A DNA stretch of 64,000 bases from Clostridia bacterium (GCA_017511265.1 JAFWKV010000001.1:553-64552), one strand, 5' to 3'. Shown: positions 13,116 through 63,340, counted from the stretch's first letter. Numbers and translations: made by a program. The notes: a model not told the origin generated them from the sequence alone.

Positions 13116-13141
13116 TAAAAAATCCTCCTTATTTTTTTATT

Positions 13142-13347
13142 TCAAGTTATAATATAAAAAATTTATGCGACTCCTTGTTCATTACATTCGGATAGAAATT
13201 GTATTGCTAAAAAATGAGCCTCTTTCACTTAGTCCTCACTCGCTACTCTCGTTCGACGTGAACATCCCTCATTTTTGTAGCTTTACAATTTCTAATCCTC
13301 ATTTCAATCAAGCGTCGTCTTCTAAATTCTTTTATATTATAACTTGA
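13142..13347. repeat. Imperfect palindromic interspersed element between the two ackA genes
   Basis: Arms are TCAAGTTATAATATAAAA...AGAAATTGT...AAAATGAG. Strings of 18-19 nt (AAAATGAGGGATGTTCAC and AAAATGAGCCTCTTTCACT) recur, inverted, in the core of the 32.5-kb element. Confidence 0.75.
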
Positions 13348-13369
13348 AATTAATAATCAATAAAATATA

Positions 13370-17535: not shown

Positions 17536-17690
17536 TGCTGTATTTTGGGACGGGGCGACAGGTGATGCCTTGGGGACGGAGGAAAAAGTATCACCTGTTT
17601 AAAATGTTAAATCTAGTTAAAATATAAACAGGTGATACTTTTTCCTCCGTCCCCAAAGCATCACCTGTCGCCCCGTCCCAAAATACAGCA
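17536..17690. repeat. 155-bp modular palindrome (GGGAC-module family)
   Basis: The left arm TGCTGTATTTTGGGACGGGGCGACAGGTGATGCCTTGGGGACGGAGGAAAAAGTATCACCTGTTTA has a near-perfect complement on the right. It starts 2 nt after the dgt-like stop. Confidence 0.9.
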
Positions 17691-32437: not shown

Positions 32438-32466
32438 AGGGACGCAAACTTGCGTCCCTACTTTTA
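32438..32466 (+). terminator. Rho-independent terminator of the 121-aa gene
   Basis: Stem AGGGACGCAA/TTGCGTCCCT followed by ACTTTTAT. Confidence 0.65.
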
Positions 32467-32860
32467 TGCTGTCTTTTGGGACGGGGCAAAAAAACATCAG
32501 CCTGCTGTCAATGGGGACGTAGCAATTTGACAACCTGCCTTTGGCTAAGTTCCCTTAATTTTTTATATTAGCGCTTGATTGGAATAAGCATTAGAAATTG
32601 TTTAGCTAGAAAATGAGGGATGTTCACGGTACTCGTGTTGAATTATGAATTATAGAAAAATTTGATTTTTCTATAATGAAGAATGATACGCGAGGGACTG
32701 AGTGAAAGAGGCTCATTTTCTAGCCTTACAATTTCTTTGCGAATGAAATGAACAAGCTAATATAAAAAATTAAGGGAACTTAGCCAAAGGCAGGTTGTCA
32801 AATTGCTACATCCCCATTGACAGCAGGTGATGTTTTTTTGCCCCGTCCCAAAAGACAGCA
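32467..32860. repeat. 394-bp nested (Russian-doll) palindrome of the GGGAC-module family
   Basis: The ~105-bp arms (TGCTGTCTTTTGGGACGGGGCAAAAAAACATCAGCCTGCTGTCAATGGGGACGTAGCAATTTGACAACCTGCCTTTGGCTAAGTTCCCTTAATTTTTTATATTAGC) differ at 2 positions. The core equals the 13.2-kb element family, with a further small palindrome inserted at its centre. The right end abuts the mutS stop. Confidence 0.9.
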
Positions 32861-39721: not shown

Positions 39722-41053
39722 ATGGAAAAGATGAAAATTCAAAAATACGAAACTAATTTTAAAAGAAACCTTTTTTGGAAAGAAAGCACATTAAACACAA
39801 AACAATACACAGAAAAACAAGAAAATAAAGTAATAAATGTTTATCCTGTCATATCTTATCAAGAAATAATAGGCTTTGGTGGAGCTTTTACAGAAGCGGC
39901 AGGCTATGCTTATAGTAAGCTAAGTGATTCAAAAAAAGTTGAACTTATAGATGACTATTTTTCACAAAATGGCTTAAACTATTCAATTGGTAGATTACCT
40001 GTCGGGAGTTGTGACTTTTCTCTTAATTCTTATTCATATTCAAAAAGACCAGATTTGTCTGATTTTAGTATAGAAAGAGATAGAAAATATCTCTTACCTT
40101 TTCTGAAATCTTCACTAGAAAAAAGGCAATTGAAATTATTAGCTTCTCCATGGAGCCCTCCAAGCTTTATGAAATCCAATAAAATGCTAAAATTAGGTGG
40201 TAAGCTTTTAAATAAATATTATCAAACTTGGGCAGATTATTTGGTAAAGTATATACAAGCCTATGAATCTGAAAATGTACCTATAAAATACATAACAGTT
40301 CAAAATGAAGCAAATGCAACTCAAATATGGGAATCTTGTTTGTACTCAGCTGAAGAAGAAGTAAATTTTGCAACAAATTATCTATATTATGGTTTTGTAC
40401 ATAATAATATTGATACTAAAATACTGATATGGGATCATAACAAAGAAAAACTTTTTACAAGAGCTCTATCAGAACTAAGCACAGATTCTGCAAAGCAAGC
40501 TATTTCTGGATTTGCATTTCATTGGTATTCTGGTGACCATTTTGAAAATATTAAATTGACACATGATGCTTTTCCTGATAAGCTTTTATTTCATACAGAA
40601 GGCTGTACAGGCTTTTCTCATTTTAGAAAAGAAGATGAAGTTCAAAATGGCGAAATATATGCTCATGATATTTTAGGTGATTTAAATGCCGGTATAAATG
40701 CCTTTATAGACTGGAATTTAATACTTGATCATAAAGGAGGGCCAAATCATAAGTTAAATTACTGCAATAGTCCAATAATGCTAAATGATGCTAATTCTGA
40801 TTATGTTAAAAATTTAACGTATTATTATATTGGGCATTTTAGTAAATTTATTAAACCTGGTAGCAAACGTATTGCTTTTAGTAGATATGATGATAGAATT
40901 GAAGTAACTGCTTTTAAGAATACTGATGGTTCTATTGCTGTTGTTCTTCTGAATCGTAATAATTGGAACTATGAATATAATTTATGTATAAATGATTTTG
41001 TTATTCATGATAATTTAGATAGTCATGCTATTGTTACTTTGGTAATTAAGTAA
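39722..41053 (+). CDS. Glycoside hydrolase family 30 (glucosylceramidase-like)
   Basis: GFGGAFTEAA, ASPWSPPSFMK and ITVQNE motifs. Confidence 0.85.
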   Translation: MEKMKIQKYETNFKRNLFWKESTLNTKQYTEKQENKVINVYPVISYQEIIGFGGAFTEAAGYAYSKLSDSKKVELIDDYFSQNGLNYSIGRLPVGSCDFSLNSYSYSKRPDLSDFSIERDRKYLLPFLKSSLEKRQLKLLASPWSPPSFMKSNKMLKLGGKLLNKYYQTWADYLVKYIQAYESENVPIKYITVQNEANATQIWESCLYSAEEEVNFATNYLYYGFVHNNIDTKILIWDHNKEKLFTRALSELSTDSAKQAISGFAFHWYSGDHFENIKLTHDAFPDKLLFHTEGCTGFSHFRKEDEVQNGEIYAHDILGDLNAGINAFIDWNLILDHKGGPNHKLNYCNSPIMLNDANSDYVKNLTYYYIGHFSKFIKPGSKRIAFSRYDDRIEVTAFKNTDGSIAVVLLNRNNWNYEYNLCINDFVIHDNLDSHAIVTLVIK

Positions 41054-41214
41054 GTGATGCCTTGGGGACGGAGGAAAAAGAAGCGATGCCTTGGGGACGG
41101 AGGAAAAAGTATCACCTGTTTATATTATAGCTAGAATTTACAGTTTAAACAGGTGATACTTTTTCCTCCGTCCCCAAGGCATCGCTTCTTTTTCCTCCGT
41201 CCCCAAGGCATCAC
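41054..41214. repeat. 161-bp modular palindrome (two GTGATGCCTTGGGGACGGAGG-type modules per arm)
   Basis: It begins the base after the GH30 TAA, and its last base is the first base of the convergent gene's stop codon. It shares its inner module with the 17.5-kb palindrome. Confidence 0.9.
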
Positions 41215-41408
41215 TAATTATGGTCGTCAAATAATAATTTAATTCCCCATAATCCTGACACACCTACAAGTGAATAAACAATCCTACTAAGTATTGACAT
41301 ATCTCCAAACAAAGTTGCAACTAAGTCAAATTTAAATAGTCCTATCAATCCCCAGTTGATTGCACCAATTATAATTAAAGTCAAAGCTGTTTTATCTATA
41401 ATTTTCAT
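41214..41408 (-). CDS. DUF378-family small membrane protein
   Basis: IIGAINWGLIGLFKFDLVATLFG signature. The start at MKIIDK follows RBS GGAGGTG. Confidence 0.75.
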   Translation of the reverse strand: MKIIDKTALTLIIIGAINWGLIGLFKFDLVATLFGDMSILSRIVYSLVGVSGLWGIKLLFDDHN

Positions 41409-44204: not shown

Positions 44205-47200
44205 TTACTGTCCAAAAGCTGAAAAGAATGTACTCAATGCATTTGCTGCATTATTTAGTAATCCGTTATTAATTTGTGTCAGGTAAGTTGTGTAATATGT
44301 TGTTCCATTAATTGTTTCTGTATCATCTTTTCTTTCATAGTTATCTTCTACCTCTGCGATATTTCCATCTACACTACCCAAAACGCCCTTCACAATTCCA
44401 TCATAGAATTTAATTGTTCCAGTATTTATTATACCATAGGTTGTTCCTCTTATTTCAGGTGAGGACATATTCACTGTTCCATCTTTTTTTCCTATTTTAA
44501 CTGTTGAATTAGCTGAATTTGTAATAGCAGCATTTGTAATACTACCTTGAGTATCTAAAATTATTGTTCCATCTTCTATTGTTACGGTTCCACCATTAAA
44601 GTTTTGAATAGTTCCTCTAGGCTCACCTGATGGTGCATTTCCTGTTGTAGTAGAACTTATAGTTGAATTACCTCTTATTTCTACAGTACCTCCATTGTTG
44701 TATACTGCTTGTCTTTCTCCTGTTGATATCATAGTTACTCCATCAATTATTACTGTTCCGCCTGCATAATTGTCAATTGTAGAAGATAATTGTACTACTG
44801 AATTTATAGTTCCATTTGTAAGTTTAATTGTCCCATAATTGTCTATAACTTTACTACTACCATTATTACTTAAAGTATTATTTTGTAGATTTATTATTAT
44901 ATTTTGTCCTGCAGATGTTTTAACATATTCTGTAGAATCCGTTAATATATTAATTGTTACCTCAGTACCATCTTTTGGTACTTGATTAACTGCCTCTTGT
45001 AATGTATTATAAGATACATCATTAATTTCTGCAGTGTCAACTACAGTCCAGTGAGCATAATATGTTACATCTTCATTTATTATTGTATCTTCTGTTATTG
45101 ATTCTCCACCTTCTTTTGATGTATACCATCCATCGCATTGGAATCCTGCTCTGGTTGCTTTTGGTAAGTCTCCTAAAGCAGTTCCACTTTCAACTAGTTT
45201 TGTTCCATTAATTATTTTACCACCATTTGGGTCGAAAGTAACTGTATATGTACTTTTCCAATGTGCATAAAATGTTATATCTCCATCTATTATTGTATTT
45301 TCTGTTATTTTGATTCCACCTTCTGCTGATGTGTACCATCCGTCAAGCATATATCCTGATTTTGTTGCTGTTGGCAATGTTCCTACAGGGTCACCTGGTT
45401 TTACTTTCCTTGTTCCATTAGCTATTGTGCCTCCATTTGGATCAAATGTTACAGTATCTTTTTCTTTTAGATAAACTACGTCATATGTATCACTATCTAT
45501 AGTTTCTGTTTTGTGTGCTATTACATAGTCATCTTCTATATTTTTTAAATGTTGGTCATTATCAGTTGCACTTGTTATTCCCTTTATAACACCATCATAA
45601 AAACTTAAATCTACAGTACTGCTTAAGCCATACTTTTTGCCTTGTATTATAGGAGTATTCATAACCATATTTCCATCTTTTGTTCCTATTGTCAGTGTTG
45701 TTTTACTATTATATAAGCCAGTTCCTGCACTAGATTCTGACCTTATTGTTCCTCCAGTTATTGTCATTTTGCTTTCATTTGATACTGCTATTCCATTATT
45801 TGTTCCATTAGTTGATACTATTGTTCCTCCAGATATTGTAACTGTTCCATTAGTATTATGAACTGTTCCTCTATTTTTGTTAGTTTCTACTGTTGCTTTA
45901 GAACTTAAATATGCATTTCCTGTTATTTCTATGGTTCCTCCTTCATTATATATTGCTTGTCTAGTTCCTGTAGTTATAATGCTTCCGCCACTAATTGTCA
46001 AATTGGCTTTTGATTTATTGTTAATAGCTCCTTGTGTTGTTGATGAGGTTATTGTTCCATTTGAAATTGCAAGAGTTCCAAAGTTATTAATTACAGGATT
46101 TACTCCATTATTACTTATAGTAAAATCTTGTAAATCAAATACAATATTTTTACCTGCAGCTACTTCAAGTTTTTCACTTGTATCTCTTAATAAAATAATT
46201 GTTTTTTGAGGTCCATTAGCAGTTACTGCATTTATAGCAGCTTGTAAAGTACTATAAAATGTCCCCTCAATTTCTGCTTTTTCTGTTTTCCATTGTGCAT
46301 ATAATGTTATATTTCCTAAATTATTTACTTCTTGTTGATATGTATATCTTGTTCCACTTCCATCAGGTTCGGTATTCCATCCCGCAAATGAATAATTTGT
46401 TTTTTGGAATGTATTTTTCCTTAATTTTTCTGTTTTATTGAACGGAATTGTTTGTGGTTCCATTGTTCCTGTTGCACTTGCATCATTTTTATCAAATGTT
46501 ATTGTATATCCTCCATTTGTAAAGTATCCTGGGTTTGATGTGCCCTCATCTATGTGAGCATATGTATAACTTACATTAGATGCATCATATACTGTGCCTG
46601 CTCCACCGACAATGTTAGTTGCACCAATAAACATATCATTACCATTTGCTGAATCCGTTATACCTGTTGTTACAAAATTTGATGATGCATAAATTGTTAT
46701 TAAATCTGTACAACCCTGAAACATATTATTAATTTTTGTTACATTTGTAGTATTAAAATTACTTAAATTTAAAGTCGTTATTCCACTACAACTATAAAAC
46801 ATATATTCCATAGTTGTTACACTGCCAGTATCAAATCCACCTAACTCTATGGTCGTTAAACTGCTACAGTTTTTTAACATTGCTTGCATATTTGTTACCA
46901 TTGATGTATTAAAGCTACTTATATTCAGACTTGTTAAGCCACTACATCCATCAAATATATTTGACATATTTGTTACTTGTGTTGTATCAAAGTTGCTTAA
47001 GTCTAACCCAGTTAGACCACTGCAACCTTGATACATACCCTGCATATTTGTTACACTTGAAGTATTAAAATGATTTACATTTATACTTGTTAAGCTACTA
47101 CAGTTTTGAAACATATTTCCCAAATTTGTAACATTGCTTGTATCAAAATTGCTTACATTTAGTGTTCCAACATTTTGGCAATTTGAAAACATATAGTGCA

Positions 47201-50200
47201 TATCGTTTACATTACTTGTATCAATTTCACTTACATCCAATGTGCTTACATTTTTACAATTATAAAATAGAAATTCCATATCAGTTACTTTGCTTGTGTT
47301 AAGGTTCGATAAGTTTAACGTAGCATTAATACTATTTCCTATATATGCAAATAAATATGCTGAGCTTGAGTTAGCAAATACTCCACCATTTTGTCCTATT
47401 ACTACATCATAGCCATTTGTGTTATCACCAGTTGCCCATAGTAGCACTCCTCCATTACTTTGCTGTGATACGTCCCAACATGTTGTATTATCTACTGTAT
47501 GGCCATCTATTGATGTTGCAAATGATATGCTCTTTATTTTGTCTCTTGTTATGCTTGTACCTAAGAATGTTCCATCTGCTGTAGCAGTTGTGTTTGCTTT
47601 AAGATTTGCTTCTTGCCAATGTGCATAATAGGTTACATCCTGGTTTCCCATTATAGTATTTTCTGATATCTGTTCTCCATTTTCTGTGAACCATCCTAAA
47701 AATTGGTAACCTGTTTTTCTTGCTGTTGGTAATGTTCCAATTCTTGTATCTTCAGCTACTGTTCTTGTATCTTCGCTTGCTGTTCCACCATTTGCATTAA
47801 ATGTTACAGTATAATCTTTGTAGAAGTATTTTGATGTTATTGTTATGCCATCTCCAAGTTTTGATATTGGAACCGCAACTACAGGACGAATTCTTTTACT
47901 ATTTCCATAATAGTTATAACTAACGCTTCCTTTAATTTCAACAAACATTTCATTGCTTTTGTCATTAGCTGAAGGAGAAGATAGCCACCATGCTCCAGTA
48001 CTTGGAGAATATATTGCTTCATCCATTTCAGATGAATATCCTAATCCACTAACATAAAAACTATAGTTTTCTACCTCACCACCTGATGTATTTTTTCCTA
48101 TTTTATATCCTGTTGCATTTTCTTCTACACTACAATCTAATTGTATTTCATGTGTTGCATTATATGATGCAACAAACATTTCTAATGAAGGTGCTCCTAC
48201 TGCCCAAAGTGCATAGTCTGCTTTATAATCATTCCAATTTGTTGTGTCTAATAAAGTTTGCAAACCTTGTATATTACTATTTATATTTGTTCCATCTGAT
48301 TTTAATTCCCATGATGAGTTTTGTGTATATTTTTTGTTTATCTTTTCACCTACTGATGATATTGTAGACGTTCCAAATCCAGGTAAATTGTTTAGAGCAT
48401 TATTTCCAATACTATCAGATATCAAGTATGCATAATTATTATCTGCATAGAACAATCTCCATATTCTATTATCGACTGTGCTATTTCCTGTAGTATAACC
48501 TGTTACTATTTTACCAAAATCACTTGAATATGTTGAATTTACTGTACCTAGCTCTAAATATCCATTTGAAAAGTATCCTGGATTTGATGTACCCCCATCT
48601 ATGTGTGCATATGTGTGGTTTATATGAGATGCATCATATACTGTGCCTGCTCCTCCTACAAGTTTAGTTGAACCAGTAAACATATCTGTACTATTTTCTA
48701 CTGCTGTCGTAACAAAGCTTGATGATGCATATATTGTTGCCAAATTAGAGCAATTAGCAAACATAGTATTCATACTTTTAACTTTTGATGTGTTAAAGCT
48801 ACTTACATCTATTTCACTTAAGGCATAATCATATGCAAACATTCCTTCCATTGTAGTAACATTTGATGTATCAAGTCCACTTACATTCAAACTTGGTAGT
48901 GTTCTGCAATTATAGAACAGATAGCTCATATTTGTCACATTGCTTGTATCAAAGTTTGTTAAATCTATTGTGGCATCTATACTATTTCCTATATATGCAA
49001 ACAAATATGCTGAGCTAGCGTTTGCTACAACACCACCATTCTGTCCGATTACTACTTCATATCCATTTGTGTCATCTCCAGTTGCCCATAGTAAAACACC
49101 ACCATTACTCTGTTTTGAGACATCCCAACATGTTGTATTATCTACTGTGTGTCCATCTATTGAATTTGTAAACGATACTTTCTTTATTTTGTCTCTAGTT
49201 ATGCTTGTTCCAAGGAATGCTCCATTTTCTGTTGCTGTTGTATTTGCTTTTAGGTATGTTCCCCATTGTGCATATAATGTTACTGTTCCATTTTCTGTTG
49301 CAGTTAAATTGATTACTTCTTGTTTATCTAAATAAGTTGTTCCGCTTCCATCAGATGCAGTATTCCAGCATGCAAAAGGATAGTTTGGATGTTGGAATGT
49401 ATTTTGGCTTAAATTCTGTGCTGTATTATATGTAAATGTTTGTGCTTCCATTTCTCCTGTTGCATTTTCGTCATTTTTGTCAAAGTTAACTGTATATTTA
49501 AACGCTTCCCATTGTGCATACAGTGTATGTGCTCCTGTTTGTGTTACAGTTGTATCTGCTGTGATATAGTTAGGATTTTCTCCTGGATTTTGTTCTATTG
49601 TCCAACCTTTAAAGCTATAATTTTCTCTTGTTGGAATTGGTAAGGTTCCATATTTGCTATCATATTCTACTTCTATTTCACTTGGTTCTACTGTTATTCC
49701 GTCTCCTGCATTAAATGTTACTTTAAATTTATTTACTTCCCATTGTGCATACAGTGTATGTGCTTCTGTTTGTGTTACAGTTGTGTCTGCTGTGATATAG
49801 TTAGGATTTTCTCCTGGCTCTTGTTCTATTGTCCAACCTTTAAATCTATAATGTTCTCTTGTTGGGATTGGTAAGGTTCCATATTTTTTACCATATTCTA
49901 CTTCTATTTCACTTGGGTTTATTGTTATTCCGGTTCCTGCATTAAGCGTTACTAAATATTTATTTACCATATTTATAAGAATTGCTATGGTTTTGCCTTT
50001 ATTTTCTTCCTTTACAGTTAAAGTTATTGTATTAGGTGTATATTTATTAGCAACTACAGTAAGAACATTTCCGTTTATCTCTGCATGTATAAATTCATCC
50101 TCATAATTTTTTGAAAAATTGCTACTTTGTGCGGTATTTGCTATTGTATACTCACCTGAATCTTCTCCCATTATGTTTACAGTTCCAGTTTGCCCTTTAG

Positions 50201-51311
50201 ATAATGTTAATTCGGTTACATCTGCATAGATTGATGCTTCTCCAACTGTTAATTTTGCTATTCTTGTTGATAATTCCTTTCTATATGTTTGATTAGTTTG
50301 TACTATTTCACAATAATAATATGTATTATTCATATCCATTGTTGCTTCCGGAATTGTGTAAACAGCATTTGTTGCACCTTCAATTGCTACTTTGTTAGCA
50401 CCATCACTACTTGTGCATTTATACCATTGATATGTAATGCTTCCATTTCCTGTTTCAGCTACATTAAAACTAAATGTTGCTGGTTTTCCTTCGGCTACAA
50501 ATACGTCTTGTAAGTCATCAGCTATTGTCATTCTACTTATTACAACAGTAGTTTGGTTTACAGATTCGTTTCCTGCTGTATCGACAATTTTTACATACCA
50601 AACTCCCTCATTTAATACCTCTATAGTGCAATTTGGTTCTATTGTTTCAGTTTTTGCTATTTTCCAATCAACTTGGTTAACAGATGATCCCTGTCCATAA
50701 TAAATAGTATACTTTTTTATGTCTCCTGTTGTCTCGATATTATTTATATAAAGTTTGTTTTCAATTGATGATAGGTTAAATGATATTCCTGAGATTGGCT
50801 TTTTGTATTCAACATTATATCTATCATCATCCAATCCACTAACAGTCCATATAGTTTTTTCTTTATACTTGATTCCATCTAGAGAAATAACTTTTCTTCG
50901 TTTTACATTAACTAAAAATTCTTGATCTATATTTTTAAATCCCAAGCTTTCTATTGTAGCTTTATCATAATATCTATAATCTTCTTGATCTATAATTTCT
51001 TCTTCTATTCCTTCTAATTGTTTCTTTTCTTCTTTTGCTCCATCGAAGGCCTGCTTTTGTTTGTCTTGTTCTAAATCTTGTAGTGTTCTTCCCAATTGTA
51101 GAACAGAATCATCACCTTTTCTATAATTTTGTTCTAATTCATTTACCTTATCTTGCATCATTTGTAATTCTGTACCACGGGCAGCTAGTCTTGCATTTTC
51201 TATAGAGTCCCTTCCTGCTGTAATTCCTACTCCTGATAAGATTAATAATAATATAATTGTTATTACTAATGCTGCAAGTGTAATACCTTTGTTACTTACT
51301 AAATTGTTCAT
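44205..51311 (-). CDS. Giant (2368 aa) surface protein: pilin-like N-terminal signal, Listeria-Bacteroides (Flg_new) repeats, two BspA/DUF285-type LRR blocks, two beta-helix-like modules
   Basis: The N-terminus NKGITLAALVITIILLLILSG resembles a class III (prepilin) signal. YTVTFNANGG...GYxFxGW...YAxW units are Flg_new repeats. Runs of LxxFDTSNVTNMxxMFxxC are DUF285/BspA LRRs. GT/NG-rich segments look like a parallel beta-helix. Confidence 0.85.
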   Translation of the reverse strand: MNNLVSNKGITLAALVITIILLLILSGVGITAGRDSIENARLAARGTELQMMQDKVNELEQNYRKGDDSVLQLGRTLQDLEQDKQKQAFDGAKEEKKQLEGIEEEIIDQEDYRYYDKATIESLGFKNIDQEFLVNVKRRKVISLDGIKYKEKTIWTVSGLDDDRYNVEYKKPISGISFNLSSIENKLYINNIETTGDIKKYTIYYGQGSSVNQVDWKIAKTETIEPNCTIEVLNEGVWYVKIVDTAGNESVNQTTVVISRMTIADDLQDVFVAEGKPATFSFNVAETGNGSITYQWYKCTSSDGANKVAIEGATNAVYTIPEATMDMNNTYYYCEIVQTNQTYRKELSTRIAKLTVGEASIYADVTELTLSKGQTGTVNIMGEDSGEYTIANTAQSSNFSKNYEDEFIHAEINGNVLTVVANKYTPNTITLTVKEENKGKTIAILINMVNKYLVTLNAGTGITINPSEIEVEYGKKYGTLPIPTREHYRFKGWTIEQEPGENPNYITADTTVTQTEAHTLYAQWEVNKFKVTFNAGDGITVEPSEIEVEYDSKYGTLPIPTRENYSFKGWTIEQNPGENPNYITADTTVTQTGAHTLYAQWEAFKYTVNFDKNDENATGEMEAQTFTYNTAQNLSQNTFQHPNYPFACWNTASDGSGTTYLDKQEVINLTATENGTVTLYAQWGTYLKANTTATENGAFLGTSITRDKIKKVSFTNSIDGHTVDNTTCWDVSKQSNGGVLLWATGDDTNGYEVVIGQNGGVVANASSAYLFAYIGNSIDATIDLTNFDTSNVTNMSYLFYNCRTLPSLNVSGLDTSNVTTMEGMFAYDYALSEIDVSSFNTSKVKSMNTMFANCSNLATIYASSSFVTTAVENSTDMFTGSTKLVGGAGTVYDASHINHTYAHIDGGTSNPGYFSNGYLELGTVNSTYSSDFGKIVTGYTTGNSTVDNRIWRLFYADNNYAYLISDSIGNNALNNLPGFGTSTISSVGEKINKKYTQNSSWELKSDGTNINSNIQGLQTLLDTTNWNDYKADYALWAVGAPSLEMFVASYNATHEIQLDCSVEENATGYKIGKNTSGGEVENYSFYVSGLGYSSEMDEAIYSPSTGAWWLSSPSANDKSNEMFVEIKGSVSYNYYGNSKRIRPVVAVPISKLGDGITITSKYFYKDYTVTFNANGGTASEDTRTVAEDTRIGTLPTARKTGYQFLGWFTENGEQISENTIMGNQDVTYYAHWQEANLKANTTATADGTFLGTSITRDKIKSISFATSIDGHTVDNTTCWDVSQQSNGGVLLWATGDNTNGYDVVIGQNGGVFANSSSAYLFAYIGNSINATLNLSNLNTSKVTDMEFLFYNCKNVSTLDVSEIDTSNVNDMHYMFSNCQNVGTLNVSNFDTSNVTNLGNMFQNCSSLTSINVNHFNTSSVTNMQGMYQGCSGLTGLDLSNFDTTQVTNMSNIFDGCSGLTSLNISSFNTSMVTNMQAMLKNCSSLTTIELGGFDTGSVTTMEYMFYSCSGITTLNLSNFNTTNVTKINNMFQGCTDLITIYASSNFVTTGITDSANGNDMFIGATNIVGGAGTVYDASNVSYTYAHIDEGTSNPGYFTNGGYTITFDKNDASATGTMEPQTIPFNKTEKLRKNTFQKTNYSFAGWNTEPDGSGTRYTYQQEVNNLGNITLYAQWKTEKAEIEGTFYSTLQAAINAVTANGPQKTIILLRDTSEKLEVAAGKNIVFDLQDFTISNNGVNPVINNFGTLAISNGTITSSTTQGAINNKSKANLTISGGSIITTGTRQAIYNEGGTIEITGNAYLSSKATVETNKNRGTVHNTNGTVTISGGTIVSTNGTNNGIAVSNESKMTITGGTIRSESSAGTGLYNSKTTLTIGTKDGNMVMNTPIIQGKKYGLSSTVDLSFYDGVIKGITSATDNDQHLKNIEDDYVIAHKTETIDSDTYDVVYLKEKDTVTFDPNGGTIANGTRKVKPGDPVGTLPTATKSGYMLDGWYTSAEGGIKITENTIIDGDITFYAHWKSTYTVTFDPNGGKIINGTKLVESGTALGDLPKATRAGFQCDGWYTSKEGGESITEDTIINEDVTYYAHWTVVDTAEINDVSYNTLQEAVNQVPKDGTEVTINILTDSTEYVKTSAGQNIIINLQNNTLSNNGSSKVIDNYGTIKLTNGTINSVVQLSSTIDNYAGGTVIIDGVTMISTGERQAVYNNGGTVEIRGNSTISSTTTGNAPSGEPRGTIQNFNGGTVTIEDGTIILDTQGSITNAAITNSANSTVKIGKKDGTVNMSSPEIRGTTYGIINTGTIKFYDGIVKGVLGSVDGNIAEVEDNYERKDDTETINGTTYYTTYLTQINNGLLNNAANALSTFFSAFGQ

Positions 51312-56396: not shown

Positions 56397-56654
56397 TTAG
56401 CTGTTGCTAACCCTGTTCCACTTGACGCTATGGCACTCCTCAACGTGGAGTTGCCCATTAATCTCCGAGACTCTTACAAGAAAAGTTTCGTTGTCAGACT
56501 GCACCGCATAGACAAGGTAATTGTCTTTGTGGTACGAGTGAGTTGAATGGATAAGAGTCAATGCGGCTCCATCCTCCAAGTTGAAGTCCGGCTCGCCATT
56601 AGCGTACTTGTTGTTGAATACGCGAATAATCTCGCGCATGAGTTCCATATCCAT
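56397..56654 (-). CDS. Hypothetical 85-aa protein, strong compositional outlier
   Basis: The stretch 56401..56460 is about 52% G+C. RBS AAAGGAG is present. I recognise no family. Confidence 0.6.
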   Translation of the reverse strand: MDMELMREIIRVFNNKYANGEPDFNLEDGAALTLIHSTHSYHKDNYLVYAVQSDNETFLVRVSEINGQLHVEECHSVKWNRVSNS

Positions 56655-56702: not shown

Positions 56703-56731
56703 ATTATAGCAAAGCTATGCGTAATTGTCAA
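56703..56731 (-). promoter_or_regulatory. Consensus sigma-A promoter of the 85-aa gene
   Basis: The minus strand reads TTGACA (56731..56726), a 17-nt spacer, then TATAAT (56708..56703). Confidence 0.6.
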
Positions 56732-56758: not shown

Positions 56759-56822
56759 GGAAAACTTTTTTAAAACGTCCCCAAAAGTTTTCCACAGTCC
56801 ACCCTGTCCCCAAAAGTTTTCC
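56759..56822. repeat. GGGAC-family hairpin plus half-repeat, overlapping the cotJC stop
   Basis: GGAAAACTTTT-TTAAAACGTCCCC-AAAAGTTTTCC is followed by a second GTCCCCAAAAGTTTTCC. The last base is the first base of the cotJC stop codon. Confidence 0.75.
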
Positions 56823-57398
56823 TAATAAAATTTCTTTGCTGCTAGTCTGTCTTGTACGCCACGTAGTGCTTCGCCAAAACGTTGAAAATGCACCACTTCT
56901 CTTTGTCTTAAATAACGTAATGGGTCTATTACTTCTGGATTGTCTTTACTTAAGTCAATTAATTTTTCATACGTTGCACGTGCTTTTTGTTCTGCTGCTA
57001 GGTCTTCTTGTAAGTTTGCTATTGGATCTCCTTTTGCTGCAATATATGCTGCTGTAAATGGTACTCCTGCTGCTGATACTGGATATACATCTAATCCATG
57101 GTCTGTATAATATGCATCCAAACCAGCTTCTTTTATTTCTTCTATTGTAGCTCCTTTTGTCAATTGGTTTACTATAGTTCCTACCATTTCTAAGTGAGCC
57201 AATTCTTCTGTTCCGGATATCATTTAAAATTGCTTTTGAAGTTTGGTCAGGCATTCCAAATCGTTGAGATAAATACCTTAATGATGCAGCAAGTTCTCCG
57301 TCTGGGCCACCATATTGAGAAATAATATTTTTAGCAAGTTTCAAGTCTTTACACTTTATATTTATTGGGTATTGTAGCATTTTGTTATAAGTCCACAT
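56822..57398 (-). pseudogene. cotJC: Manganese-catalase-family spore coat protein CotJC, frameshifted
   Basis: The N-terminal ORF reads MWTYNKMLQYPINIK...YGGPDGELAASLRYLSQRFGMPD...ILNDI. The rest, GTEELAHLEM...AAEQKARATYE..., is in the ORF 56822..57223. An extra C in GATATC-C-GGAACA (about 57216) separates them. Confidence 0.85.
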
Positions 57399-57437
57399 TT
57401 AAAAATTCCCCCTTTCCCATGGCCACCCTTCGTTTAG
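57399..57437 (-). other. cotJB: Displaced 3' end of cotJB (encodes ...LNEGWPWERGNF*)
   Basis: My translation of the minus strand gives CTA AAC GAA GGG TGG CCA TGG GAA AGG GGG AAT TTT TAA. The TAA directly abuts the cotJC ATG (TAAATG). Confidence 0.75.
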
Positions 57438-57438
57438 A

Positions 57439-59031
57439 TTAGGAACATATATTAAATTTATATTTTATATTAATATTTCTATCGTCTATGATTATTTTAT
57501 CTATTAATTTAAATAATAAGCTTTTACTTGCATCATTTATTTCATTAAAGCTCATGATTTTTTTCATATTTTCTTTAAATTCATTATTTCCAATAATTAT
57601 TTCTTTATCTGTTTTATCACATTCTTGTTTATATATTTCCATTTTTCTTTCATATTCTTTCTTTTGTTTTTCATATTTTTTTACTAATACATTAAATGTA
57701 TCATTAGATATTACCTCTGATATTTTATCTTCATATAAATTACTTATAATCTTATTTAATTCTTCCATTTTTTTAGTTAGTTTTATTAATTCAGATTTTT
57801 TATTATTTTTTTTTATTCTATCCTTGTTATAGTCTAGTTGTTCTATGTTTAAATATTTTTTTATATTACTTTTTATAGCTTCTGTTACTAATCTGATAAG
57901 TTCATCTTCTCTTATATGGACATTACTACAGAATTTATTACCATATTTTTTGTATCTTGAACAAATACATCTAAAATTTTTTCCATGATTTTTATTATAT
58001 GTTATTCTACTGCCACATTTGCAAAATACTAGTCCTGTAAGAAGATGCTTTTCTTTGTTTGAATAATTCCATTCATTAGTTTGTTTATTCAGCATTTCTT
58101 GTACTATGTCAAAGTCAGCTCTTTCAATTATAGCTTTATGATTATCGAGAACAATAATTTGATTTTCTGTTGGAACTTTTGACGTTCTTTTTATCTTGTA
58201 ATTTATCTTTTTGTTTTTTAGTTGAACTAAATCTCCAGCATAAATTCTATCTCTTAATATTTTATTTATTACAGTAGAATTCCATTGGTATGTTGTGTGC
58301 TTTTTGCAATTAGGATTAAAATAATTTGTGGTTTCTTCTTTGTATTTAAGTGGTGTTATTATTCCCATATCGTTAAATATATTTGCTATTTGCGTTTTGC
58401 TTTTTCCTTTTTTATACAATCTAAAAATCATTTTAACATTTTCTGATACATTTTCATCAACTATAATTTTGTTTTTATTATTATTGTCTTTTTTGTATCC
58501 ATATGGTAAAAATGCTTTTATACAATCTCCACATTTTGCTTTTGTTTCTATTGCTGACCTGACTTTGTTTGATATGTCTTTTGCGTACATATCATTTATA
58601 ACAGATTTAAACGGTGTCATATCATTATTACTGTTATATTGATCATATGTATCAATATTATCGTTTACTGCTATATATCTTACCATTTTTGTTGGAAAAT
58701 ATTTTTCTACATACATGCCAACTCCAATATGGTCTCTTCCAAGTCTTGAAAGGTCTTTTGTTATTACAAGGTTTACTAACCCTCTTTCTATGTCGTTTAA
58801 TAAATTCTGAAATCCTGGTCTTTCAAAATTAGTACCTGTATATCCATCATCATAATAAACATTTGCTAATGTCCATTTTTGTTCTTTAACTATAGATTTT
58901 AAAAACTTAATTTGGTTTTCTATGCTCTCTGATATGTTTTTGTATTTTTCTTCTTTTTCGTCTTCTTTTGAAAGTCTCGCATATATTGCTACTTTCCATT
59001 TTATATTATAGTCATTATATAACCTGTTCAT
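57439..59031 (-). CDS. Large serine recombinase (SpoIVCA/TnpX/phage-integrase type)
   Basis: Resolvase catalytic domain (VAIYARLSKED, SIENQ, DDGYTGTNFERPGF, KDLSRLGRD), followed by recombinase and zinc-ribbon (CKCGS...C.CSRY) domains and a coiled-coil tail. Confidence 0.9.
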   Translation of the reverse strand: MNRLYNDYNIKWKVAIYARLSKEDEKEEKYKNISESIENQIKFLKSIVKEQKWTLANVYYDDGYTGTNFERPGFQNLLNDIERGLVNLVITKDLSRLGRDHIGVGMYVEKYFPTKMVRYIAVNDNIDTYDQYNSNNDMTPFKSVINDMYAKDISNKVRSAIETKAKCGDCIKAFLPYGYKKDNNNKNKIIVDENVSENVKMIFRLYKKGKSKTQIANIFNDMGIITPLKYKEETTNYFNPNCKKHTTYQWNSTVINKILRDRIYAGDLVQLKNKKINYKIKRTSKVPTENQIIVLDNHKAIIERADFDIVQEMLNKQTNEWNYSNKEKHLLTGLVFCKCGSRITYNKNHGKNFRCICSRYKKYGNKFCSNVHIREDELIRLVTEAIKSNIKKYLNIEQLDYNKDRIKKNNKKSELIKLTKKMEELNKIISNLYEDKISEVISNDTFNVLVKKYEKQKKEYERKMEIYKQECDKTDKEIIIGNNEFKENMKKIMSFNEINDASKSLLFKLIDKIIIDDRNINIKYKFNICS

Positions 59032-59069
59032 TGTTCCTCCTCTCTAAAATTATATAAATGACTACTTAC

Positions 59070-59183
59070 CTATTTTTTGTTTTGATAAAATAAAAACTTA
59101 TAATTTTCATCAACCCATTCTTGTATTAGTTCTTGTATGTTTTTGCCTTCTTTAGTATATGTTTCTTTTACTCTGTTTTCCAT
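59070..59183 (-). CDS. Possible 37-aa ORF upstream of the recombinase
   Basis: My translation gives MENRVKETYTKEGKNIQELIQEWVDENYKFLFYQNKK*. It is below the track cutoff and has no clear RBS, so this is speculative. Confidence 0.25.
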   Translation of the reverse strand: MENRVKETYTKEGKNIQELIQEWVDENYKFLFYQNKK

Positions 59184-59231
59184 TAATATCACCTCAGTAA
59201 AATATATTTTTTTAATAATATATAAATTACC

Positions 59232-59265
59232 AACAACAAAAAAGGCATCTATTTTTTAGATACCT
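59232..59265 (-). terminator. Terminator after the ABC transporter gene
   Basis: An imperfect 8-bp stem (AGGTATCT/AGATGCCT on the minus strand) followed by TTTTTGTTG. Confidence 0.45.
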
Positions 59266-59283
59266 TTTTATATAATTGTATTT

Positions 59284-61698
59284 TTATTCTGTTTTTAATG
59301 ATTCAACAGGGTCTTTTTTGCTTGCCATACTAGCTGGTCCAATTCCTGAGAATACTGTTAGTCCCATACTGATTAATATTAGTATAATTGCATGTACAGG
59401 TGATAATAACATAATATTGTCTATTTTTGCAAGCAAGCTGACTATTGCATTTATTCCTAGTGATAGTATAAAACTTACAGCTATTCCTAAAACACCTGAA
59501 GCTAAGCCTTCAATAATTGTTTCAGCTCTAAATACCCTTTTTACGTCTTTTTTACTAGCACCAATTGCACGTAAAATTCCAATTTCTTTTGTTCTTTCTA
59601 ATACTGATATGTATGTAATAATACCAATCATCAAGCTTGAAACTATTAAAGATATTGCTACAAAAGCAATCATAACCATTGATATCATAGAAACAATTTG
59701 AGATATACCTTGTGTTAAACTTTCCATTTGGTCTACATATATAATTTTATCTTCTTCGTTTGCTTGATTATTATATGTTTCTATAAATTTCTTTATTTCA
59801 GCTTTAGAATTTGCATCTTTTGGATAAATATTTATTGTATATGGATTTTCAAGTTTCCCTGATCCTAATATTTTCAAGTTCTTTTCATAAGTTGAATTTA
59901 TACCGTCAAATGCTTCTCCTGTAAATATGTTAATATTTTTATTAGCCATTTGTTCTTTTACTATTTCTGTTTCATTTGCTGTATTCATGTAATCTTCTAT
60001 TAATTCATGTGTATATCCTAAAAATCCACTAGGTGTATTTTTGTCTTTTACTTTTATGATTCCTGTGATTTTTAATTCAGGTGCTTTATTATACAATTCT
60101 TTAATAAATTCACTGTCATTTTCTCTACTTACCCATGTGTTTCCAACCTTTTGATAATAATCGCTACCTTTAATTATTCTATATGTCTTTCCAATCAATT
60201 TATCAAAGTCATAAGAAATATCTTCTGCTTTAACTTTTTCCCCATTTGAGGCTTTTTCTGTAAATTTAGCAATATCAGCTCTGTCTTCTATGTCTAATGA
60301 ATACATTGTTGTGAGTGATAATTCATTGTTTTCGTCTACTACAAGTGCTAGTTCATTTTTTGATTTTGGCATAGTACCTGAAACTACTTCATATTGGTCA
60401 CTATTTTTTAGCTCTTTAAATGAGTTTTTTAATAAATTAATTGAAAATAAGTCTCCTAATATTCCTTCATCTGATGTTTCAGAATCGTCAATTGGATTGA
60501 TTTTTGTTATGTTTCCGTTTTTGCCTGTGTCATATAATTGTATGTTTACATTATACGTGTACTGAATAAAAGAAGAAAATTTGTCTGTTTCGTTTTTGTG
60601 TTGTTCAATATATTCTTTCATTTTTTGTAGGTTGTTTTTCTTTGTTGCTGACTTTGAGCTAAGTGTCAAGTTTGTAGAAATGTCATCTTTAGCAACTATT
60701 GTGTCTTTATGCTCATTTTTTTCGTTTTTGATTTCTATTGTGTCAGTTTGTGTTCCTGTGTCTGAAACACTTGCTGTACTTTCCATACTTACAGCTTGAG
60801 TTGCTGATGATTCTTTTTGCATATTATTTGCATATTCTGTAACACCATTTGATAATGATAATACAAGTGCAATACCAATTATACCAATGCTTCCGGCTAT
60901 TGCTGTTACTAATGTTCTGCCTCTTTTGGTCATTAAGTTGTTTTTACTTAACGATAAAGCTGTAAGTAAACTCATTGAACTTCTCTTTTTATTATCATCT
61001 GAGTCTGTAGCTTCATTTCCATCAAATGGTTCTGTATCATCTATTATATGGCCATCTTTTAAGCTTACTATTCTAGTTGAATATTTTTGTGCAAGTTCTG
61101 GGTTGTGTGTAACCATTATAACTAGTTTTTCTTTTGCTACTTCTTTTAGTAAATCCATTATTTGTACACTTGTTTCTGAATCTAATGCACCTGTTGGCTC
61201 GTCAGCTAATATTATATCTGGATTATTTACTAATGCTCTTGCTATTGCAACTCTTTGCATTTGGCCTCCAGATAGTTGTCTTGGCTTTTTGTTTATGTGT
61301 TCTCCTAGTCCCACTTTTTTTAATGCTTCTGTAGCTCTTTTTTTGCGTTCTGATTTTGAAACACCTGATAGTGTCAATGCTAGTTCTACGTTGGATAGAA
61401 CTGATTGGTGTCCAATTAAATTGTAACTTTGAAATATAAATCCTATTTTGTGGTTTCTATATGTGTCCCAATTACTATCTTTATATTCCTTTGTACTAAT
61501 TCCGTTTATTATTAGTTCTCCTGTTGTATAGTGGTCTAATCCTCCTATTATGTTTAGTAATGTTGATTTACCACTACCACTTTGTCCTAAAATAGATACA
61601 AATTCATTTTTTCTAAAGTTGATTGAGACATTATCTAATGCTTTTTGCTCGATTGTGTCCATTTTATATATTTTAGTTATATTTTTTAAGGTTAACAT
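59284..61698 (-). CDS. Fused ABC transporter ATPase-permease (MacB/FtsX type)
   Basis: N-terminal NBD (GQSGSGKST, LSGGQMQR, ILADEP), a long extracytoplasmic domain, and a C-terminal FtsX-like 4-TM domain. Confidence 0.85.
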   Translation of the reverse strand: MLTLKNITKIYKMDTIEQKALDNVSINFRKNEFVSILGQSGSGKSTLLNIIGGLDHYTTGELIINGISTKEYKDSNWDTYRNHKIGFIFQSYNLIGHQSVLSNVELALTLSGVSKSERKKRATEALKKVGLGEHINKKPRQLSGGQMQRVAIARALVNNPDIILADEPTGALDSETSVQIMDLLKEVAKEKLVIMVTHNPELAQKYSTRIVSLKDGHIIDDTEPFDGNEATDSDDNKKRSSMSLLTALSLSKNNLMTKRGRTLVTAIAGSIGIIGIALVLSLSNGVTEYANNMQKESSATQAVSMESTASVSDTGTQTDTIEIKNEKNEHKDTIVAKDDISTNLTLSSKSATKKNNLQKMKEYIEQHKNETDKFSSFIQYTYNVNIQLYDTGKNGNITKINPIDDSETSDEGILGDLFSINLLKNSFKELKNSDQYEVVSGTMPKSKNELALVVDENNELSLTTMYSLDIEDRADIAKFTEKASNGEKVKAEDISYDFDKLIGKTYRIIKGSDYYQKVGNTWVSRENDSEFIKELYNKAPELKITGIIKVKDKNTPSGFLGYTHELIEDYMNTANETEIVKEQMANKNINIFTGEAFDGINSTYEKNLKILGSGKLENPYTINIYPKDANSKAEIKKFIETYNNQANEEDKIIYVDQMESLTQGISQIVSMISMVMIAFVAISLIVSSLMIGIITYISVLERTKEIGILRAIGASKKDVKRVFRAETIIEGLASGVLGIAVSFILSLGINAIVSLLAKIDNIMLLSPVHAIILILISMGLTVFSGIGPASMASKKDPVESLKTE

Positions 61699-61843
61699 TG
61701 TTTTCCTCCTTTTTTAGTGTTTAGTTTAATACTGTATTTTTATTTTTATAGATTTTTTTATTATGAAACAAAATGGACTAGATAAGGCTAGTCCATTTTG
61801 CTTTCATTTTTTGCTGACTTAAATTAAATAGACTTGTTTTTTA

Positions 61844-62227
61844 TTATTCTTGTGATCTTACTTTATATATTGCTATTAAGGTAATTACATCAAGAATTAA
61901 ATCCACAATACCTGTTACTCTTTGGTTTACAAAGAATCCAACAATTGCTCCAACAAGTCCAAGTATTAATAATACCATTAACAATGTTCCTTTGCTTTTG
62001 TCATTGATTATTCTTCTTATAAGCCACCAAAACCATAAATAAACTAAAGCACTTGTTACTGCTGTAACTCCTACAAAGATTTTTGGATCTATTCCATTTG
62101 TTTGTCCTGCAATGGCTTGCATTGCCTCATTACTGCTTATAGAAATGAGCATAAAAACAATACCAAGAATTGCATATATCATATAAAGCCAACTCATTCC
62201 TTTTAGCCAACTTTTAGCTTTTTCCAT
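61844..62227 (-). CDS. Hypothetical 4-TM membrane protein (element cargo)
   Basis: Hydrophobic ORF. The start at the second ATG has better spacing to RBS AAAGGGGA. Confidence 0.5.
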   Translation of the reverse strand: MEKAKSWLKGMSWLYMIYAILGIVFMLISISSNEAMQAIAGQTNGIDPKIFVGVTAVTSALVYLWFWWLIRRIINDKSKGTLLMVLLILGLVGAIVGFFVNQRVTGIVDLILDVITLIAIYKVRSQE

Positions 62228-62320
62228 GACCATATCCCCTTTCTCTTTAATTCGCTTATATTGTACTATAAAAGAAATAATTTGTCAATAATTTGTATTT
62301 TTTCTTTTATTTTGGGTGAT

Positions 62321-62650
62321 TCATTTATTTTTTCCTATTTTGAACGCAGGCCATGGTTGCTCTAACCATCTCCATTTATTACATGGATAGTTGATTGTAA
62401 GTGGTCCATATATTTTTTGATATTCGTCTTTTAGTTCTTTACATTCTTTACAGTATTTTTTGTGAAGGCAAAGGGCTTTTTTGTCTTCTGGATGTGTGTC
62501 TAGATATAATGCTAGTTCTGTTATAGCGAAGTCTAAACTTCTGATTTCATCTGCCATTTCTCTTCTTATTTTTTCTTTTTCACAGCAGGTTTTATCTTCG
62601 TTTTCTTCTGCTGGCATATTTCCTTGCATCATCATTGCCATTGTGTTCAT
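62321..62650 (-). CDS. cotJB: Spore coat protein CotJB, 5' portion with an element-derived tail (interrupted gene)
   Basis: LDFAITELALYLDTHPEDKKAL...YGPLT...NKWRWLEQPWP matches the CotJB family. It then runs into 8 residues (AFKIGKNK*) inside the inserted element. The ATG at 62650 overlaps the cotJA TGA. Confidence 0.8.
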   Translation of the reverse strand: MNTMAMMMQGNMPAEENEDKTCCEKEKIRREMADEIRSLDFAITELALYLDTHPEDKKALCLHKKYCKECKELKDEYQKIYGPLTINYPCNKWRWLEQPWPAFKIGKNK

Positions 62651-63021
62651 TCCTCTATCTTCTTCCGACATTTGTTACACCCCTCTCCTATTTTATTTGT
62701 TGCTTCTAAATATTCTATTTCTTTCATTGATTGTCCTGGACAGTATGGGCTTACTAGTTCTGGATAGATTGTTCCCATTTTTAGGCCTATATTTGGTTTG
62801 AATGTTTTATCCATATATTGGATTGGTACATAGCTTTGACCTAACATAGGGGTTTGTGGGAATACGTTTTCTTCTTCTCCAAATCCACATTCGCATTCGT
62901 CGTCATAGTCTGGACATTGACAGTATTCGTGTTGACATGCTTCTTCTAGCTTTTCTTTTTCGCATTTGTTGTCTTGGTTGTTGTTCATACAGCAATATCT
63001 TCTTATTCTACGATTGTACAT
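62647..63021 (-). CDS. cotJA: Spore coat-associated protein CotJA
   Basis: LGQSYVPIQYMDKTFKPNIGLKMGTIYPELVSPY matches the CotJA core motif. It lies upstream of cotJB. Confidence 0.8.
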   Translation of the reverse strand: MYNRRIRRYCCMNNNQDNKCEKEKLEEACQHEYCQCPDYDDECECGFGEEENVFPQTPMLGQSYVPIQYMDKTFKPNIGLKMGTIYPELVSPYCPGQSMKEIEYLEATNKIGEGCNKCRKKIEE

Positions 63022-63070: not shown

Positions 63071-63304
63071 AAAAGTGATGCCTTAGCTGTCTTTTGGGAC
63101 GGTGTTGTCAATGGGGAAGGAGCTGTCAATGGGGACGTGCTTAAATGAAAACGTGTCAATGGGGACGGGTTTAAATGACACACATTAAAAATGTGTGTCA
63201 TTTAAGCCCGTCCCCATTGACACGTTTTCATTTAAGCACGTCCCCATTGACAGCTCCTTCCCCATTGACAACACCGTCCCAAAAGACAGCTAAGGCATCA
63301 CTTT
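63071..63304. repeat. 234-bp near-perfect palindrome with three TGTCAATGGGGA(A/C)G modules per arm
   Basis: The ~115-bp arms differ at one position, and the centre is CACATTAAAAATGTG. The outer shell reuses GTGATGCC and CTGTCTTTTGGGACGG words seen elsewhere. Confidence 0.9.
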
Positions 63305-63340
63305 TCCTTAAGTTATTATTCTCTGATATAATTTCTCTTT

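Follow-up and report, generated by a model that had tools for sequence, protein, structure and literature searches.

In a 64,000-nt stretch of DNA from a Clostridia bacterium (GCA_017511265.1 JAFWKV010000001.1:553-64552, the whole of which is here called the window) the cotJA-cotJB-cotJC operon lies on the minus strand, and its gene cotJB is split by a 4.9-kb element carrying a large serine recombinase (LSR). Precise excision of this element would rebuild the C-terminus of CotJB together with the cotJB-cotJC junction. This arrangement was proposed in an earlier note made from the sequence of the window, and it is borne out by homologous elements at the same site in other genomes, by empty sites in sister species and by the dyad symmetry of the rebuilt attachment site attP. 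With a probability of roughly 55% we read it as a small, non-phage integrative element of the LSR type whose excision, aided by a recombination directionality factor (RDF), would take place in the sporulating mother cell. The window is part of a chromosome and also contains mutS, miaB, der, fbp, ack and the RNase P RNA.

The split gene and its reconstruction

The identity of the interrupted gene was given by its match to Pfam CotJB and by the flanking cotJA and cotJC, and cotJA, the cotJB stop, the orphan frame in front of cotJC, the cotJC start and the two GGCCA junctions were all found in the sequence where the earlier note had placed them (Table 1). The split open reading frame (ORF) reads ...KWRWLEQPWP and then continues into an element-encoded tail, AFKIGKNK*, with its stop at 62321, while an orphan minus-strand frame, LNEGWPWERGNF* (57437..57399), ends in a TAA that adjoins the cotJC ATG at 57398. 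The insertion takes off the last six codons of cotJB and cuts cotJC off from the cotJ promoter, and the Shine-Dalgarno sequence of cotJC sits inside the 3' segment of cotJB (57399..57425). In Bacillus subtilis cotJ is expressed in the mother cell, under sigma-E.

When the two segments were joined in silico at their TG points the frame continued as ...EQPWPWERGNF*, with the stop again abutting the cotJC ATG. The joined gene is in frame and CotJB-like as had been predicted, but not with the predicted start and length; the N-termini of homologues (MSEEDR/MSVE...) put the start codon at 62671 (ATG) instead of 62650 (ATGA), and the rebuilt protein therefore has 114 amino acids and not 107. The profile check suggested for the reconstituted product was positive, with Pfam CotJB matched over positions 2-76 of 76 at 94.1 bits; the ORF as split scores 87 bits, over positions 2-74. 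Of the best 120 cluster representatives for CotJB, 73 have the exact end PWPWERGNF and 116 a PWPWE-type end, which agrees with the statement in the earlier note that this is the conserved end of the family, and the nearest intact relative (P0002, 88% identical) ends in ...KWRWLEQPWPWERGNF, the same as the reconstruction. That cotJB is split is confirmed, far beyond chance, and recombination between the two TGs would restore the gene to the residue, including its TAA-ATG junction with cotJC.

Joints and point of crossover

At attL the cotJB arm lies at the higher coordinates and the P' arm of the element (GCCTGCGTTCAAAATAGG...) at the lower, and at attR the P arm begins 14 nt past the recombinase stop. 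The sequence GGCCA is found on the plus strand at both joints, 57421..57425 and 62349..62353, and alignment of the junctions together with a pair of occupied and empty sites places the crossover at the TG of the first TGG codon, inside this GGCCA core. When comparing the aligned junctions (the compared loci are numbered L001-L236) the common core was TGGCC in the window, TGGCCTT in L017, CATGG in L019 and TGG in L018; there is only this very short core, with neither long direct repeats nor a target-site duplication.

The rebuilt attP is an inverted repeat with the core AAACGAA-N8-TTCGTTT and arms of ~22 nt. Centred on the TG, 16 of 22 positions are complementary in the window, L002 and L019, and 10 of 22 in L017 and L018; other centres in attP reach at most 10/22 (at most 9/22 for the window's own attP), and attB is without a dyad signal (at most 8/22 for the window and 9/22 at any locus). 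The short core, the symmetric attP and the exact joints are hallmarks of a large serine recombinase, and the crossover is TG (or GG) and not the palindromic GC. The 12-bp palindrome CCATGGCCATGG, earlier put forward as the attB core, had to be abandoned: it is not conserved in relatives (CCATGGCCTTGG, CCTTGGCCATGG), attB is asymmetric and a GC centre is excluded by the attL of L018. The palindrome is a by-product of the PWPW codons.

The same insertion in related genomes

The interrupted allele of the window was found on 15 contigs from several studies, ten of which were fetched (L006-L015), and those reaching into the element agree with the window at 100%. The same insertion is seen in a sister lineage with 88-91% nucleotide identity (L001/L002), which has kept the ABC transporter gene, the small ORF and the recombinase. 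When one genome per GTDB species was scanned with an alignment of recombinase homologues, all six loci with a recombinase at least 54% identical turned out to sit at cotJB; in L017-L020 the attL is at the same PW|PW codon, and in L016 and L021 the sequence WPWE(G/R)G..* stands immediately before cotJC. Metagenome assemblies gave three more relatives of the recombinase (62-67% identical), in which the LSR is followed by cotJC (L096/L097, L099 and L100-102), and L096 also shows the cotJB attL. LSRs 54-72% identical are thereby found at the same cotJB codon in at least ten other lineages (L001/L002, L016-L021, L096/L097, L099, L100-102), and the carriers are uncultured Clostridia from animal and human guts.

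Uninterrupted cotJA-cotJB-cotJC operons were identified in L232, L234 and L235, in the same chromosomal context as L096. The empty site of L232 and the occupied one of L096, of the same species, have flanks 99.9-100% identical and overlap by 7 nt at the cotJB site; in the L018 species the empty site is that of L236, where the flanks are 100% identical and the overlap is 3 nt (TGG). For homologous elements, the empty site that the earlier note had proposed to look for thus exists, exact, in two sister species. Proteins identical throughout to the rebuilt CotJB of the L096 and L018 species are present in public data, in one case on 76 contigs. Contigs of the L018 species carry the interrupted allele in at least 23 cases, from several studies, and the intact one in three (~90% interrupted); in a check for co-occurrence in one sample, the samples listed for the interrupted allele did not include the run that holds the empty contig. 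These data show an element family that uses exactly this site in many uncultured gut Clostridia, with occupied and precisely empty sites coexisting in sister species.

Content of the element

The element has a GC content of 27.2% as against 35.6% in the cotJ genes. Just inside attL, upstream of the cargo genes, there is a promoter-like site, TTGACA-17-TACAAT, and a terminator-like hairpin parts the cargo from the module of orf40 and recombinase (Table 1). The gene for the 129-aa membrane protein is missing from the sister element of L001/L002. For the 804-aa ABC protein the best NCBIfam model is MacB, with a score below its cut-off, and a homologue of this transporter (47% identical) was also seen outside the element at L017:12297-14894, divergent from cotJA. 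The earlier note held transporter cargo to be unusual, which is contradicted by the skin element of B. subtilis, since this carries an arsenic-resistance operon that includes an efflux pump. A defence function of the cargo was rejected, PADLOC showing generic ATPase similarity only, and so was a prophage origin, as the PHROG matches are only to integrase and generic ABC "moron" families and the best phage LSR is 36% identical. Rfam gave no match in or near the element.

In the LSR the domains PF00239, PF07508 and PF13408 span residues 14-387, and residues 400-480, after the zinc ribbon, are rich in K and E. An alignment of 28 sequences revealed that the invariant columns are retained (Y17/R19/S21/D24, D93-R99 and the serine motif YxRLSxED). 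The protein matches the PHROG 95 integrase (E 4.9e-91), its closest solved domain is TnpX, and the best NCBIfam model is XisF, at 94 bits versus a cut-off of 375; no SpoIVCA-specific NCBIfam model was matched.

The small gene orf40 is directly upstream of the recombinase, and no strong sigma-70 site was seen upstream of it. All 11 related elements that were examined have such a small ORF, of 35-52 aa and with the motif ELIQEWxxEN, in the same position beside the LSR. The orf40 product matches no family of Pfam, NCBIfam or PHROGs, and a search of 1.84 billion proteins gave only 14 representatives with E<=1e-3. It is the best candidate for the RDF. A CATAnAnT motif is located 25-36 nt before the start of the small ORF in five of 11 elements (shuffle mean 0.19), and it resembles the sigma-E -10 consensus, CATACAHT; the same layout, CATAAATT-GAGGTGAT, precedes the small ORF of an unrelated LSR inserted at a GTEE site in cotJC (see below).

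Only the module of orf40 and LSR is shared by all elements, with varying cargo and gene orientation and with the recombinase gene at either end and in either orientation. Other elements carry ECF (extracytoplasmic function) sigma/anti-sigma factors, Fic, Bro-N or an IS200-type transposase, and the 3.5-kb element of L019 carries almost no cargo.

Table 1. Features of the split cotJ operon and of the element inserted in it
Feature	Position	Strand	Remarks
cotJA, intact	62647..63021	-	Pfam CotJA, E 1.3e-10
cotJB, 5' segment	62352..62671	-	Pfam CotJB; codons 1-106 and TG of codon 107 (first Trp of PWPW)
attL	62330..62375	.	Crossover TG 62353/62352 (minus strand); from junction alignment of 6 loci
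Intervening element	57426..62353	-	4,928 bp, one TG copy counted
Promoter-like site, sigma-70 type	62260..62288	-	TTGACA-17-TACAAT, 11/12; consensus match only
Membrane protein, predicted (cargo)	61844..62233	-	129 aa; no family match
ABC ATPase and FtsX-type permease fusion, MacB-like (cargo)	59284..61698	-	804 aa; Pfam ABC_tran and FtsX
Intrinsic-terminator-like hairpin and T run	59239..59269	-	3' of the ABC gene
orf40	59070..59183	-	37 aa, MENRVKETYTKEGKNIQELIQEWVDENYKFLFYQNKK; ribosome binding site GAGGTGA; directly upstream of recombinase
Large serine recombinase, intact	57439..59031	-	530 aa; Resolvase, Recombinase and Zn_ribbon_recom
attR	57402..57447	.	Crossover TG 57425/57424; element P arm (...CTAATCTAAACGAAGGG)
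cotJB, 3' segment	57399..57425	-	TGG CCA TGG GAA AGG GGG AAT TTT TAA (WPWERGNF*)
cotJC (Mn-catalase family)	56822..57398	-	191 codons, otherwise complete; +1 frameshift
attB, predicted joint			GAGCAACCATGGCCATGGGAAAGG; longer form GGTTAGAGCAACCATGGCCATGGGAAAGGGGGAAT
attP, predicted joint			AAACGAAGGGTGGCCTGCGTTCAAAA; longer form CTAATCTAAACGAAGGGTGGCCTGCGTTCAAAATAGG

Further recombinases in cotJC

Four LSR lineages, with 25-45% mutual identity, were found at four sites of the operon, one in cotJB (PW|PW) and three in cotJC. The first cotJC site, ...GGPDGEL|, is occupied in L022 and L032 by recombinases 36-45% identical to that of the window, and the element at L032:7144-9997 is ~2.9 kb with a 14-nt core, CCAGATGGAGAACT, at both junctions. 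The second, ...LNDIGTEE|, is interrupted in L018 (11794 onward), L001/L002 (after ...CAGAAGAA) and L099 (11443 onward), in each case followed by similar element-end sequence, and in L018 the element encodes a 516-aa serine recombinase 25% identical to the one in cotJB. The third, ...YYTDHGV|DVYP, is used in L021, L096 and L233; in L096 it holds an 8.8-kb element (L096:11950-20777) encoding a recombinase of 521 aa (DUF4368) as well as a Mob_Pre relaxase, ParE and HEPN, and the site is precisely empty in L097 and L232, the overlap being 5 nt. Both halves of cotJC are kept wherever the contigs allow a view (L032 and L096), and two elements are present in one operon in L096 and L018.

The frameshift in cotJC of the window

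The cotJC gene of the window gives two half-matches to Pfam Mn_catalase, in different frames, and the +1 frameshift is an extra C at 57215/57216 (GAT ATC C GGA) which is also present in independent assemblies 100% identical to the window. L016 has a +1 cotJC frameshift of its own. Programmed +1 frameshifting at AUC-CGG-A was considered and rejected; since both changes are simple expansions of a run by one base (C to CC in the window, GG to GGG in L016), lie at differing positions and have no slippery P-site codon, the frameshifts are treated as mutations. CGG is a rare codon in low-GC Firmicutes, and both frameshifts (window 57203-57221 and L016:5090-5110) create a CGG-A context just before a GGA Gly codon. 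Each also lies ~11-16 nt upstream of a known insertion point (GTEE|, PDGEL|), which may be a coincidence or may reflect a mutated attB half-site.

When comparing the window with L002, the right end of the element and the 5' part of cotJC (57200-57700 versus L002:5050-5555) are ~99% identical, compared with 88-91% for the rest of the locus. The synonymous divergence (dS) is 0.056 in the cotJC 5' part, 0.26-0.43 in cotJA, the cotJB 5' part, orf40 and the ABC gene, and intermediate, 0.14, in the LSR gene, which suggests a recent recombination tract that also carried the frameshift.

Comparison with known elements

Programmed DNA rearrangement in bacteria has a textbook example in the elements that interrupt sporulation genes and are removed by excision in the mother cell, and their known targets are few: sigK, spoVFB, spoVR, gerE, spsM, yabG and, from a one-line note, cotJC. 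No cotJB-intervening element was found in the literature searched, in line with the earlier note, which knew of no characterised example, and cotJB is a new target gene for this known class of removable elements.

In architecture the closest is gin, in gerE of Bacillus cereus ATCC 10987, with the recombinase GirC and the 42-aa directionality factor GirX (PMC5595907). Both elements are small, without phage structural genes and inside a short mother-cell sporulation gene; both combine an LSR with a protein of ~40 aa without known motif, which in gin acts as directionality factor; and in both the junctions share a short core and the ORF is restored by precise joining. In size and position orf40 mirrors the 42-aa GirX (PMC5595907). 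They differ in target, gerE versus cotJB, in host, Bacillus versus uncultured gut Clostridia, and in that the element described here has an ABC transporter as cargo and an excision that is predicted only.

In logic the closest is skin in sigK, together with the other gene-intervening elements. As in skin (recombinases SpoIVCA and CD1231), gene orientation varies between species and no cargo is common to the elements; skin is however prophage-derived, 2.6-48 kb in size, and by splitting the regulatory gene sigK forms a developmental switch, whereas the element in cotJB splits a structural coat-protein operon, near the 3' end. In Clostridium difficile the small RDF CD1234, under sigma-E/SpoIIID control, limits excision of skin to the mother cell, and it is transcribed from a sigma-E promoter that initiates 14 bp upstream of its start codon, with constitutive expression of the recombinase (PMC5025042). 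The pairing of orf40 and LSR parallels that of CD1234 with CD1231, and the geometry of CATAnAnT and small ORF fits the layout of the CD1234 promoter (PMC5025042). The elements SPbeta in spsM (SprA/SprB), vfbin in spoVFB, vrin in spoVR and yin in yabG (PMC4191935, PMC5499854, PMC10747680) are likewise mobile DNA in mother-cell genes for spore envelope or maturation, restored by site-specific excision, but they are prophages or prophage-like and the element in cotJB is without phage genes.

A skin-like element in cotJC of Laceyella sacchari has been mentioned in one line (bioRxiv 10.1101/2022.02.25.481979), so that the cotJ operon has been seen once before as a target. That case concerns cotJC in Thermoactinomycetaceae, the present one cotJB and, in addition, three other LSR lineages at three cotJC sites. 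The heterocyst elements of Anabaena/Nostoc (nifD, fdxN/XisF, hupL) have their own recombinases and split genes needed only in a terminally differentiated cell. The likeness lies in independent elements with recombinases of their own, and the double occupancy in L096 and L018 recalls the multiple elements of the nif region; these elements nevertheless belong to another phylum and another developmental programme, and the similarity to XisF is generic LSR similarity only.

Developmental excision or plain insertion

In the mechanism proposed here the LSR alone would have catalysed attP x attB integration at the TG in the first Trp codon of ...PWPWERGNF, and excision (attL x attR) would need a directionality factor, for which the 37-aa orf40 upstream of the LSR is the best candidate. 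We infer, by analogy with gin and the C. difficile skin, that excision would occur during sporulation in the terminally differentiating mother cell; the spore would inherit the element and the mother cell would end up with the cotJ operon intact. The ABC transporter and the membrane protein carried as cargo would presumably be expressed from a vegetative-type promoter of their own.

The strongest competing explanation, to which we allow a substantial chance although one clearly short of even, is a plain mobile element with no developmental role, for which the highly conserved, dispensable 3' end of cotJB would be a safe landing site; the operon would be knocked out or weakened and the cotJ genes would then decay, excision would be rare and serve transfer, and the cargo would pay for the upkeep. 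A number of observations favour this explanation and weigh against developmental excision. The caveat of the earlier note, that cotJC itself is frameshifted, is real: the change is fixed in the lineage of the window, the sister lineage L001/L002 has the same extra C, the protein collection holds no intact cotJC allele more than 93% identical, and the frameshift of L016 is independent. In the GTDB representative of L018 the LSR of the cotJB element is frameshifted at about residue 403-408, in an A-rich stretch (L018:9962-11528), by either decay or assembly error. Some copies are therefore decaying, and since cotJC is frameshifted the pay-off of reconstituting cotJB is doubtful in this genome. 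Presence and absence differ among strains within one species, the L096 species showing all four occupancy states, and this is ordinary mobile-element behaviour which does not require developmental control; the second element of L096 carries the Mob_Pre relaxase and is therefore mobilisable. As for the lineage of the window, all 15 contigs with its allele have the same interrupted cotJB, and assemblies and protein look-ups gave no empty site and no attP joint for it. By exact look-up the rebuilt 114-aa CotJB of the window and that of L002 are absent among ~15 billion proteins, and those of L017 and L019 are likewise absent from the protein collection. Scans of JGI metagenome contigs and of IMG/VR for a degenerate attP pattern, AAACNAANNNTGGSSTKCGTTY, yielded 120+ and 9 matches, respectively, which are judged to be chance since none has an LSR, orf40 or cotJ gene nearby. 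The region upstream of orf40 in the window is without the CATA motif, for which reason no sigma-E/sigma-K promoter was assigned to it, and the reading of CATAnAnT as a promoter in the other elements depends on a short, AT-rich consensus. In B. subtilis cotJ mutants show mild phenotypes, so the insertion could simply be tolerated. Against plain insertion stands the selection seen in the operon: between the window and L002, both element carriers, cotJA has a ratio of non-synonymous to synonymous divergence (dN/dS) of 0.077 and the cotJB 5' part one of 0.13, with dS of 0.26-0.37, values which come from few substitutions (6-16 per class for the cotJ genes) and by which both remain under strong purifying selection in two element-carrying lineages, the genes of the element having diverged to a comparable extent. 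The operon partner cotJC, frameshifted in the window and in L016, contradicts such selection. Furthermore, L017, L019, L097 and L100-102 have an intact cotJC in spite of the insertion in cotJB, and the interrupted allele makes up ~90% of the contigs in the L018 species. The convergence of four LSR lineages on one mother-cell coat operon, with both gene halves kept, is the signature of the elements experimentally proven to be excised in the mother cell (PMC5595907, PMC5025042, PMC4191935).

The element could also be an immobilised, fixed island, the truncated CotJB (101 native residues from the ATGA start and eight foreign ones) being sufficient and an intact cotJC being read through from the recombinase gene. 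The element replaces only six of the 114 residues, cotJC has the same orientation as the LSR gene and lies 40 nt from it with no predicted terminator in between, and the element has been inherited vertically across the split between the window and L002. The replaced residues are however the most conserved part of the family, and the LSR faces the opposite way in L017, L019 and L020, so that read-through cannot be general. The LSR and orf40 are moreover intact and under purifying selection, which a fixed island would not need; among the genes of the element dS is 0.14-0.43 and dN/dS 0.06-0.18 (ABC 0.06, LSR 0.13, orf40 0.18). We regard this explanation as improbable. Finally, a chimeric contig or other assembly artefact, with cotJB not truly interrupted, has a negligible probability and is refuted by the same junctions, 100% identical, in independent assemblies from different assemblers and studies, as well as by homologous junctions in many other genomes.

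Other features of the window

Long, near-perfect intergenic palindromes are located in AT-rich sequence at 63071-63305, 17546-17680, 32466-32861 and 41053-41215, with arms of 56-116 nt that are 87-99% complementary. They are composed of G-rich units, among them TGTCAATGGGGAC and TTGGGGACGG, and the largest, directly upstream of cotJA, has arms of 116 nt and a loop of 3 nt. They may be similar in kind to miniature inverted-repeat transposable elements (MITE) or repetitive extragenic palindromes (REP). A perfect extended sigma-70 consensus, TG-TTGACA-17-TATAAT, is found on the minus strand at 56703-56731 before an 85-aa ORF (56397-56654, minus strand) which has no family match and coincides with a local GC peak of 0.39-0.44, and two direct copies of GGAAAACTTTTGGGGAC lie between the region of this ORF and the cotJC stop. 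The window also encodes a 2,368-aa protein of DUF285 and Listeria-Bacteroides repeat domains (44205-51311) and two tandem acetate kinase paralogues (11922-14569).

Implications

The new target gene, cotJB, belongs to abundant uncultured spore-formers of the gut, and of most specialist interest are the four sites, the four recombinase lineages and the double occupancy of a single coat operon. With naturally occurring pairs of sites, one occupied and one empty, attB, attP and the crossover are fixed to within 2-3 bp, and the new triplets of LSR, attachment sites and RDF candidate, with a specificity of ~40-50 bp, may be of use in genome engineering. The system is also a test bed for telling domesticated switches from parasites in a safe harbour, a question on which the cotJC frameshifts of the carriers bear.

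More tentatively, and with a likelihood that we put well under one half, the cotJ operon of this clade could be a multi-site landing pad for at least four unrelated LSR lineages, each with an RDF of ~40 aa and with a shared, mother-cell-type promoter layout, from which all elements would be excised together in the mother cell. If this is true, the family of orf40 would represent a new class of minimal RDF, and developmental DNA rearrangement of a combinatorial kind would be required for expression of the coat genes, in a Firmicute counterpart to the multiple excisions in the nif region of cyanobacterial heterocysts.

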